This document shows, piece by piece, positions 35,042 to 35,880 of a stretch of 42,271 nucleotides of DNA; position 1 is the first letter of the stretch, and each line of letters begins with the position of its first letter. The notes beneath the pieces were generated by a model. It was given only the letters and a program-made list of their open reading frames with translations. It was not told the origin of the DNA and searched no databases. The position numbers were made by a program, and so were the translations under genes. The stretch spans positions 1 through 42,271 of the IMG/VR virus record IMGVR_UViG_2718218308_000003; one strand, given 5' to 3'. Source of the stretch: a virus (taxonomy: Duplodnaviria; Heunggongvirae; Uroviricota; Caudoviricetes).

Positions 35042-35131
35042 ACAATATGTACCTCCGGTATACATATTACATGATTGAAATGAACCTTCAAGATACTTGT
35101 ACCTTAACGGTACAAGGGTTTTAATTTCGTT
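35042..35131. promoter_or_regulatory. Immunity-region operator/promoter interval between the divergent cro-like and cI-like genes
   Basis: Perfect palindrome CTTGTACC-TTAAC-GGTACAAG at 35096-35116 plus an ATGTACC...GGTATACAT imperfect inverted repeat at about 35047-35065. The 90-bp interval separates divergent repressor genes. Confidence 0.5.
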
Positions 35132-35806
35132 ATGAAAACAATCCATGACATCCGGCGGTCTAACGCCAGAAAACTGAGAGATGGTGTTGGCGGGAATTCT
35201 TCCTTTGCCACTATGATTGATCGCGAGCCAACCCAGACCAGCAGGTTTATGGGAGATGGTGCTACTAAAAATATCGGTGACAGCATGGCACGACACATCG
35301 AAAAATGTTTCGACCTGCCTGTCGGATGGCTCGATCAAGAACACCAGACAACGAACATCACAAAAAAACCTGATGTTTCAATCACTAATAAACAAATCAC
35401 ATTAGTCCCTGTCATATCATGGGTACAGGCCGGAGCATGGAAAGAAGTTGGATATTCTGAGGTTGATTTGAGCACAGCAGAAACGTATCCCTGCCCTGTA
35501 CCCTGTGGGGAAATGACTTATATCTTGCGGGTGATAGGTGATTCAATGATTGATGAGTACCGCCCGGGAGACATGATTTTTGTCGATCCTGAAGTACCTG
35601 CCTGCCACGGTGACGACGTTATTGCATTGATGCACGATACAGGCGAAACCACCTTCAAAAGGTTGATAGAAGATGGGACACAGCGTTATCTCAAAGCGTT
35701 AAACCCAAACTGGCCTGAGCCTTACATTAAGATCAACGGTAATTGCTCTATAATTGGTACAGTGATTTTCTCAGGAAAACCAAGAAGATACAAAATCAAA
35801 GCCTAA
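35132..35806 (+). CDS. CI-type prophage repressor (N-terminal HTH plus C-terminal S24 LexA-like autopeptidase)
   Basis: S24 Ser-Lys dyad context (RVIGDSM ... TFKRL) and an N-terminal HTH; divergent from the cro-like gene. Confidence 0.8.
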   Translation: MKTIHDIRRSNARKLRDGVGGNSSFATMIDREPTQTSRFMGDGATKNIGDSMARHIEKCFDLPVGWLDQEHQTTNITKKPDVSITNKQITLVPVISWVQAGAWKEVGYSEVDLSTAETYPCPVPCGEMTYILRVIGDSMIDEYRPGDMIFVDPEVPACHGDDVIALMHDTGETTFKRLIEDGTQRYLKALNPNWPEPYIKINGNCSIIGTVIFSGKPRRYKIKA

Positions 35807-35818
35807 TCAATGTTTATG

Positions 35819-35841
35819 AACCTGCTTCGGCAGGTTTTTTT
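35819..35841 (+). terminator. Rho-independent terminator downstream of the repressor gene
   Basis: AACCTGC-TTCG-GCAGGTT followed by TTTTTTT. Confidence 0.6.
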
Positions 35842-35845
35842 ATAC

Positions 35846-35880
35846 TTGACAATGTACCTTTGGGATACATAATGTACCCA
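35846..35880 (+). promoter_or_regulatory. Putative repressor-controlled early promoter (pL-like) with operator-like ATGTACC repeats
   Basis: Consensus -35 TTGACA (35846-35851), a 16-17-bp spacer, then CATAAT/ATAATG. ATGTACC occurs twice (35852-35858 and 35872-35878), echoing the motif in the cI/cro intergenic region. Confidence 0.45.

Follow-up and report, generated by a model that had tools for sequence, protein, structure and literature searches.

A lambdoid immunity region of the e14/SfV type with a probable five-site operator array

The region at positions 35042-35880 of the window, as we call the whole stretch of 42,271 nucleotides analysed here, carries a lambdoid on/off control of the kind found in the e14 prophage of Escherichia coli K-12 and in the Shigella phage SfV, a real and ordinary system. 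The best explanation for its organisation, to which we assign a probability of roughly 85%, is an e14/SfV-type prophage immunity switch in which YmfK/CohE is the repressor and control is exerted in a lambda-like manner through five 19-bp operators. The features by which a lambdoid cI/Cro immunity region can be recognised in a sequence are found here and, as far as comparison of the letters can tell, the immunity type is the same as that of e14 and SfV, which places the three in one homoimmune group. In kind as well as in instance the system was already known, since its genes have been named and described in K-12 and the SfV record marks the right operator region. The five-site model and the co-variation between the repressor helix and the operator described below add detail to this picture, and they are neither a discovery nor a new kind of system.

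In previous work on the K-12 proteins, cohE is presented, with reference to Mehta et al. 2004, as an SOS-responsive repressor of the CI-like kind (bioRxiv 10.1101/2020.11.19.390815); other authors list YmfK as an 'SOS-sensitive repressor' and CroE as a regulator of the croE operon (PMC8249747). A literature search, outside of which lay the SfV papers of 2002 and 2007 and the e14 paper of 2004, found no footprint, EMSA, ChIP, reporter or transcription start data on these operators, and full-text queries with TGTACC together with operator, repressor or phage returned unrelated matches only. The operators are probably described in the papers of Allison 2002 (SfV), Roberts 2007 (SfV immunity), Mehta 2004 (e14) and Kim 2016 (SPC32H Rep).

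The repressor and its divergent partner

The assignment of cI and cro genes made in a first-pass annotation of this DNA holds in both cases. The cI-type repressor (35132-35806, + strand) is a protein of 224 aa, identical at 224/224 positions to b1145 of E. coli K-12 (YmfK/CohE, repressor of prophage e14), and a match to Peptidase_S24 in Pfam (E 1.5e-26) identifies it as an S24 autopeptidase repressor; PHROG places it with transcriptional repressors. Its C-terminal part shares 35% identity with residues 105-234 of lambda cI, and the segments VQA-G, GDSM and FKRL align to the lambda cleavage site A111-G112, the catalytic S149 and K192, respectively. In the same line, Foldseek matched the C-terminal domain to the corresponding domain of lambda cI (E 3e-9), as well as to the full-length lambda repressor 3bdn. 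The N-terminal domain yielded no helix-turn-helix (HTH) match in Pfam, even at E values up to 10, and the evidence for its fold consists of the PHROG matches, a weak PDB match, an AlphaFold (AF2) model and Foldseek. In that model (pLDDT 79) the domain is helical, with an HTH-like helix pair formed by residues 22-28 and 33-40, the second of which reads PTQTSRFM. The PDB match is to the Rep repressor of Salmonella phage SPC32H, detected by phmmer with an E value of 2e-3 and by Foldseek as entry 5d50 (36-38% identity over 73-78 aligned columns, rmsd 2.0-2.8). This likeness is restricted to the N-terminal 73-78 residues, so that the C-terminal part of 5D50, a repressor-antirepressor complex, is unrelated to the S24 domain of the window repressor.

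The cro-like ORF (34841-35041, - strand, 66 aa) is divergent from cI, the two being 90 bp apart, and encodes a small HTH protein that corresponds to ymfT/croE of e14. It is called cro in SfV, and the E. coli RefSeq genomes name the two genes ymfK and ymfT. PHROG assigned it to phrog_35, 'transcriptional repressor' (E 3e-15), and the Pfam families YdaS_toxin and HTH_3 match it as well, both below the gathering score. Beyond it on the same strand lie a CP76-type CII-like gene (34246-34809) and then a replication gene (32960-33901). The SfV, SfII and SfIV phages have been reported to lack N, cII and cIII (PMC3851460), and the CII-like gene is present in the window despite that reported absence of cII in SfV/SfIV-type phages.

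A common 19-bp operator dyad

Two kinds of repeat had been pointed out in this region by the first-pass annotation, which left open which of them was the true operator half-site. The first is a perfect palindrome with 8-bp arms, present at 35096-35116 as CTTGTACC-ttaac-GGTACAAG; the second is the heptamer ATGTACC, found at 35047-35053 within the imperfect inverted repeat ATGTACCtccggTATACAT and again at 35852-35858 and 35872-35878. Both are the same half-site: the palindrome arm (cTTGTACC) and ATGTACC are halves of one 19-bp operator, the dyad ATGTACC-N5-GGTACAT, of which there are three copies between cro and cI and two over the promoter downstream of the cI terminator.

The copy next to cro, Oa (35047-35065, OR1-like), is ATGTACCtccggTATACAT, or ATGTACC-tccgg-TATACAT, with 2 mismatches to the dyad. 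Ob (35080-35098, OR2-like and weaker) is ATGAACCttcaaGATACTT, or ATGAACC-ttcaa-GATACTT, with 3 mismatches; about 43 bp separate its centre from the cI ATG downstream. Oc (35097-35115, OR3-like) is the perfect palindrome TTGTACCttaacGGTACAA, or TTGTACC-ttaac-GGTACAA, with 0 mismatches, and it constitutes the right end of the 'putative operator region' of SfV. Ob and Oc have 2 bp in common and their centres lie 17 bp apart. On the other side of cI, OL1 (35852-35870) is ATGTACCtttggGATACAT, or ATGTACC-tttgg-GATACAT, with 1 mismatch, and OL2 (35872-35890), a weak site or a half-site, is ATGTACCcaagcGAAACAA, or ATGTACC-caagc-GAAACAA, with 2 mismatches.

When the 42-kb window was searched for WTGTACC-N5-GGTACAW with up to 2 mismatches, the 4 matches obtained (0.42 expected) all fell on sites within 35042-35890, and none of 100 shuffled sequences reached 4. 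The bare heptamer ATGTACC is only weakly enriched: 3.5 copies would be expected in 42 kb, 8 are present, and at least as many occur in 3 of 100 shuffles. As a motif of its own its window-wide enrichment is unconvincing, and it is only the 19-bp dyad that is convincingly enriched. A LexA reading of the repeats was also considered and discarded, for there is no CTGT-N8-ACAG with up to one mismatch in 35042-35880, the spacing here being TGT-N11-ACA.

Putative promoters and the cI terminator

A TTGACA promoter overlapped by ATGTACC copies was proposed in the first-pass annotation as a pL-like element, and its placement after the cI terminator is correct. It occupies 35846-35873 on the + strand, with TTGACA (35846-51), a 16-bp spacer and CATAAT (35868-73), which amounts to 11/12 consensus matches, and its hexamers are invariant (2.0 bits per column) in the 24 loci compared below. 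It is directly preceded by a hairpin and T-run at 35818-35841 (+ strand, stem 35818-35837), the intrinsic terminator of cI, for which 20 relatives share a consensus hairpin that has undergone compensatory changes in 2 of its 7 pairs, and promoter and terminator together are conserved in all relatives examined. The record of phage Ayreon annotates this PL as a promoter. OL1 takes up the spacer together with the first 3 bp of the -10 hexamer, whereas OL2 extends from the last 2 bp of this hexamer to about +11 and would thus cover the start site, predicted at around 35880. A conserved structured leader follows PL. Rfam, searched over 34000-38000 with E values up to 1, gave nothing in 35042-35880 and only STnc100 further downstream.

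The putative promoter of cro, PR (35064-35091, - strand), comprises a -35 TTGAAG (35091-35086), 16 nt of spacer and a -10 TAATAT (35069-35064). With 8/12 matches it is the best sigma-70-like candidate on the - strand of the intergenic region, the others having at most 7/12, and the TTG of its -35 and its -10 are conserved across relatives, whereas the spacer is variable. Its start is predicted at about 35056-35059, with a very short cro leader. Oa takes in the final 2 bp of the PR -10 as well as the start region, and holds in its centre the Shine-Dalgarno of cro (GGAGG, - strand); the centre of Ob, in turn, holds the PR -35.

On the opposite strand, the most plausible maintenance promoter for cI, PRM (35097-35125, +), combines the -35 TTGTAC (35097-102), which is the left arm of Oc, with a 17-bp spacer and a -10-like TTTAAT (35120-125), so that Oc overlaps both the -35 and the spacer. 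In nearly all relatives a TnTAAT is separated from the cI ATG by 6 nt of variable sequence, or by 7 nt in two loci, an arrangement to be expected if transcription begins at the A of the ATG; the usual A at position 2 of the -10 is missing. No Shine-Dalgarno is found before the cI ATG, and the start of PRM is predicted at the A of this ATG (35132), which would produce a leaderless cI mRNA. Another PRM candidate, located upstream of Oa (TAAAGA/TTAAAG-N17/18-TACAAT, 35017-35046), was rejected: its TACAAT is replaced in the Hafnia and Edwardsiella relatives and its -35 falls inside the cro coding sequence.

A scan for terminators also lists the palindrome at 35096-35116, with an 8-bp stem and a 5-nt loop followed by GGTTTTAATT, and one could imagine that it is an RNA hairpin, a terminator or attenuator placed before cI, instead of a protein-binding site. 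We consider this highly improbable. Across 23 distinct sequences neither arm varies, compensatory changes are absent, and conservation does not extend to the T-run past them (e.g., ACACAATGTTTAAT in locus L012), at odds with the behaviour of the true cI terminator. Moreover, the arms carry the half-site of Oa, Ob, OL1 and OL2, which form no comparable hairpins, and any PRM transcript reaching cI would begin downstream of the palindrome. As an intrinsic terminator the palindrome was consequently discarded, on the lack of both covariation and a conserved T-run.

Conservation of the operators across relatives

The reading of these repeats as operators of the repressor was followed across 24 loci whose cI is 73-100% identical to that of the window, with hosts that include Escherichia, Shigella phages, Klebsiella, Leclercia, Pantoea, Rahnella, Edwardsiella and Hafnia. 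The five sites keep a register of -85, -52, -35, +720 and +740 relative to the cI ATG, Oa being at -85 in 24/24 loci and Ob at -52 in most of them. Column information for the left half, centre and right half was 1.88, 1.51 and 1.67 bits in Oa; 1.96, 1.36 and 1.67 bits in Ob; 2.00, 0.45 and 1.68 bits in Oc; 1.96, 0.58 and 1.86 bits in OL1; and 1.86, 0.90 and 0.86 bits in OL2. The half-sites are thus near-invariant, whereas the centres of Oc and OL1 vary freely, which is a classical operator footprint, and the pattern suggests an invariant core GTACC-N5-GGTAC with 5 central bp that the repressor would not read. The centres of Oa and Ob are conserved because other signals are embedded there, and the bases concerned are precisely those signals, TCC in Oa (cro Shine-Dalgarno) and CAA in Ob (the TTG of the PR -35). 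OL1 becomes a perfect ATGTACC-N5-GGTACAT in many relatives. As for Oc, its outermost base is never A, unlike in Oa, OL1 and OL2, and we may speculate that this lowers the affinity for cI or favours Cro.

A more restricted version of the model, which we regard as rather unlikely, would keep only Oa, Oc and OL1 as true operators, with Ob and OL2 resembling half-sites and conserved for promoter reasons. Ob, with its 3 mismatches and a centre that coincides with the PR -35, lends itself to this interpretation, but its outer half-sites, located outside the promoter hexamers, retain 1.96 and 1.67 bits, and its left half turns into a perfect ATGTACC in relatives from Providencia, Salinicola and a Pseudomonas phage, which speaks for Ob as a real site. 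The right half of OL2 is poorly conserved at 0.86 bits and several relatives lack it; only the left half is well kept, hence its description as a weak site or half-site, yet the GTACC of that half is preserved beyond what the PL -10 needs. The preferred model retains five sites.

Immunity specificity and the boundary of the cassette

That the region sets the immunity specificity of the phage was another of the early proposals, for which a comparison with the operators of heteroimmune relatives had been suggested. Such a comparison was made by adding repressors 42-67% identical to cI, as well as relatives of its N-terminal domain obtained with tblastn, up to 34 loci in all. The 31 loci in which the repressor has a TQxSR helix, from hosts as distant as Providencia, Morganella, Salinicola and Salinivibrio and including the Pseudomonas phage vB_Pae_CF3a, without exception have 2-5 GTACC/GGTAC half-sites in the stretch of 130 nt that precedes cI (by our own arithmetic, about 0.25 per 130 nt would be expected by chance), always in the same Oa/Ob/Oc layout. 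None of the three loci with other helices has these half-sites, and different repeats are found instead: TTAGC with the helix SSYLSQ in a gammaproteobacterial MAG, TTATCA with PSQLTQ in phage BP-4795, and ACTAAG with a canonical HTH_3 in phage vB_EcoM-689R6. The co-variation of operator and recognition helix across the 34 loci supports the proposal on immunity specificity.

A Cro gene accompanies cI at nearly all of these loci, so the comparative data do not separate which protein reads which site. This confounds the co-variation with the cI helix and leaves room for a different scheme, in which the sites serve only Cro (YmfT/CroE), or some other regulator, with cI acting elsewhere or indirectly; the assignment of the croE operon to CroE in PMC8249747 fits such a scheme too. 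Several observations make it quite improbable. The OL sites are directly downstream of cI and kept with it, the motif and the TQxSR helix of cI go together even in hosts that are very distant, and in Serratia (L037) and Morganella (L035) the upstream sites are kept at loci where no cro-like gene is called beside cI. To our knowledge, cI and Cro share operators in all characterised lambdoid switches, which we also counted against a role for Cro alone. The preferred reading is still one in which cI itself would bind the five sites.

Further support for the immunity specificity comes from the mosaic junctions around the last operator. The phages of other immunity (SfII, Kati, 689R6) become similar to the window from about 35885-35889 onwards, and similarity to the group of the Stx2c phages, cdtI and Ayreon stops at 35889. 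The heteroimmune junction therefore falls right after the last operator, at about 35889, and the exchangeable immunity cassette ends at OL2.

Relationship to e14, SfV and lambda

The intergenic region between cro and cI in e14 differs from that of the window by a single nucleotide (35060, in Oa), and its terminator, PL and OL1/OL2 half-sites are identical, with two substitutions in the centres of OL1 and OL2. A window position subtracted from 1,238,065 gives the MG1655 coordinate, which places the right operators at 1,202,950-1,203,018 and the OL sites at 1,202,175-1,202,213 of NC_000913.3. The surroundings are not the same: e14 is a 15-kb remnant, and the window, a mosaic SfV/SfIV-like phage genome of 42 kb, has other neighbouring modules. 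SfV (GenBank U82619.2) shows 98.2% nucleotide identity over 34800-36041, and the 'putative operator region' of its record, which also annotates cI, cro and the cI terminator, maps exactly to 35047-35115 of the window. Again the operator half-sites are identical and the centres are not, that of Oc being CTATC instead of TTAAC and that of OL1 CATGA instead of TTTGG; the PL/OL sites are unannotated in SfV, and the replication genes downstream of cro differ from those of the window. The stretch 34800-36041 is also common to SfIV, phage cdtI, Ayreon, 2H10 and a dozen Stx2c-converting phages, and of 5426 complete E. coli genomes, 1323 (~24%) contain the region with an identity of at least 95%.

The likeness to lambda resides in the divergent cI and cro genes, the three operators over PR/PRM with a further cluster over PL beyond cI, the homologous self-cleaving C-terminal domain and a probably leaderless cI mRNA, the lambda PRM transcript starting at the A of the ATG. 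On the other hand, the operator of the window is 19 bp long and unrelated in sequence, and there are two OL sites instead of three; the N-terminal domain of the repressor is of the SPC32H-Rep type and not lambda-like in sequence, Cro is YdaS-like, and N is reportedly absent from phages of the SfV/SfIV type (PMC3851460). The Ob and Oc sites overlap, whereas the operator centres of lambda are 23-24 bp apart.

Proposed mechanism of control

Control of PR, PRM and PL by the repressor in a lambda-like manner is supported in silico. In the mechanism that we propose, the repressor, made of an N-terminal helix-turn-helix domain and a C-terminal self-cleaving domain of the LexA/lambda-cI type, would bind as dimers to the 19-bp dyad. 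At Oa it would block PR over its start site and the last bases of its -10, and at Ob it would cover the -35 of the same promoter. The location of Ob upstream of the cI start would also be appropriate for the activation of PRM, just as lambda cI bound at OR2 activates its PRM. Following the logic of lambda OR3, an occupied Oc would shut off cI synthesis at PRM, and Oc is the likely target of Cro. Translation of cI would take place from a leaderless mRNA, as in lambda, and OL1 and OL2 would control PL, from which the early-left operon is presumably expressed. In the lysogen, the repressor would silence PR and PL while sustaining its own expression until DNA damage, through RecA-stimulated self-cleavage, releases both promoters. 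We infer from the sequence the actual binding, the preference of each protein for particular sites, the activation from Ob, the transcription starts and the leaderless translation.

Some features count against a lambda-like model. PR reaches only 8/12 matches and has a very short predicted leader, the -10 of PRM deviates at its second position, the right half of OL2 is weakly conserved, and Pfam recognises no HTH in the N-terminal domain; moreover, the best-matching site, Oc, occupies the position of the weakest cI site of lambda. The overlap of Ob and Oc, tighter than in lambda, may also preclude their simultaneous occupancy. Relatives from Pseudomonas phages to Enterobacterales adhere strictly to this layout, with the centres on roughly opposite faces of the helix, and, given the 2 bp that are shared and the 17 bp between centres, a mutually exclusive occupancy is possible. 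Ob and Oc would then constitute a competitive two-state switch in which the right operator departs from lambda logic, a tentative and somewhat doubtful idea for operators that, in K-12, would also be experimentally uncharacterised. If true, such a switch would embed the ribosome-binding site of cro and the PR -35 in operator centres that go unread.

Biological implications

The lambda-like five-site model remains our preferred reading, and its consensus and positions offer directly testable targets for YmfK/CohE and CroE, in addition to predicting which prophages are homoimmune. The switch is present in K-12, in about a quarter of the complete E. coli genomes and in serotype-converting phages of Shigella, as well as in Stx2c- and CDT-converting phages. 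In e14, YmfK/CohE and CroE control SOS-inducible genes such as that of the division inhibitor ymfM. Altogether, the value of this analysis lies mainly in a correct annotation of the switch that silences prophages of the e14/SfV type and allows them to respond to DNA damage.

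A conserved element in the PL leader

The transcript predicted from PL, the inferred early-left promoter at 35846-35873 on the plus strand, carries at its 5′ end a conserved element of 64 nt (35889-35952), in which a stem of 5 bp (arms at 35921-35925 and 35938-35942) closes a conserved 12-nt loop, GGCAUAUGAAGU. Comparison of this hairpin with ten relatives revealed compensatory changes at three of the five pairs, and none of the pairs was ever broken. The element is also present 3′ of PL in the heteroimmune phages 689R6, Kati and SfII, as well as in the cryptic prophage e14 of Escherichia coli K-12, where the stem has been altered once more, again in a compensatory manner. 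An Rfam search covering positions 34000-38000 gave no match for the element. In the PL leader of the Hafnia phage yong2, a tRNA-Gly(CCC) gene (2582-2655 of the compared locus, L003) is found in the place occupied in the window by the 64-nt element.

Boundaries of the immunity region

A mosaic recombination junction maps to about 35885-35890, exactly at the right edge of OL2, a weak predicted operator or half-site (35872-35890). Similarity to the Stx2c, cdtI and Ayreon phages, which have the same immunity as the window, ends at 35889, and similarity to SfII, Kati and 689R6, of other immunity, begins at 35885-35889. On the other side of the repressor gene, the cro-cI intergenic region differs from that of K-12 e14 solely at position 35060, A in the window and G in K-12. 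This residue belongs to the right half of the predicted operator Oa (35047-35065), which reads TATACAT in the window versus TGTACAT in K-12, the latter being closer to the half-site consensus.

As for more distant relatives, the repressor of the Pseudomonas phage vB_Pae_CF3a shares its N-terminal domain with that of the window (59% identity), and its predicted operators are likewise of the GTACC kind, whereas its C-terminal part is longer and different. Behind the repressor gene stand two palindromes that resemble SOS boxes, CTGTATATACAG and CTGTATATACAA (about 2028-2095 of locus L038), an arrangement suggesting that LexA would control a gene downstream of them, which may encode an antirepressor, and that this control would replace self-cleavage of the repressor.

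Genes downstream of PL and possible roles of the leader

About 600 nt downstream of PL, and ahead of YfdP/YfdQ-like genes, the plus strand at 36491-36713 matches the Rfam model of STnc100 (RF02076), a prophage sRNA, over its whole length. The match scores 49.1 bits, where the gathering score is 47, with E 9e-9; a 2026 preprint tied STnc100 to the PasD sRNAs of Stx phages. Between PL and this sRNA, there are two small, convergent and overlapping ORFs. The one at 36081-36257 (plus) matches phrog_15476 (E 1.5e-40) and the one at 36219-36410 (minus) matches phrog_2605 (E 1.4e-33), both of them families of unknown function in PHROGs. The two could form a moron or a toxin-antitoxin-like pair; transcription of the minus-strand ORF would run against PL.

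Roberts et al. 2007 reportedly described, in phage SfV, a form of immunity that is mediated by transcription termination. The 64-nt element of the PL leader is a candidate RNA that could act in processing, antitermination or immunity.
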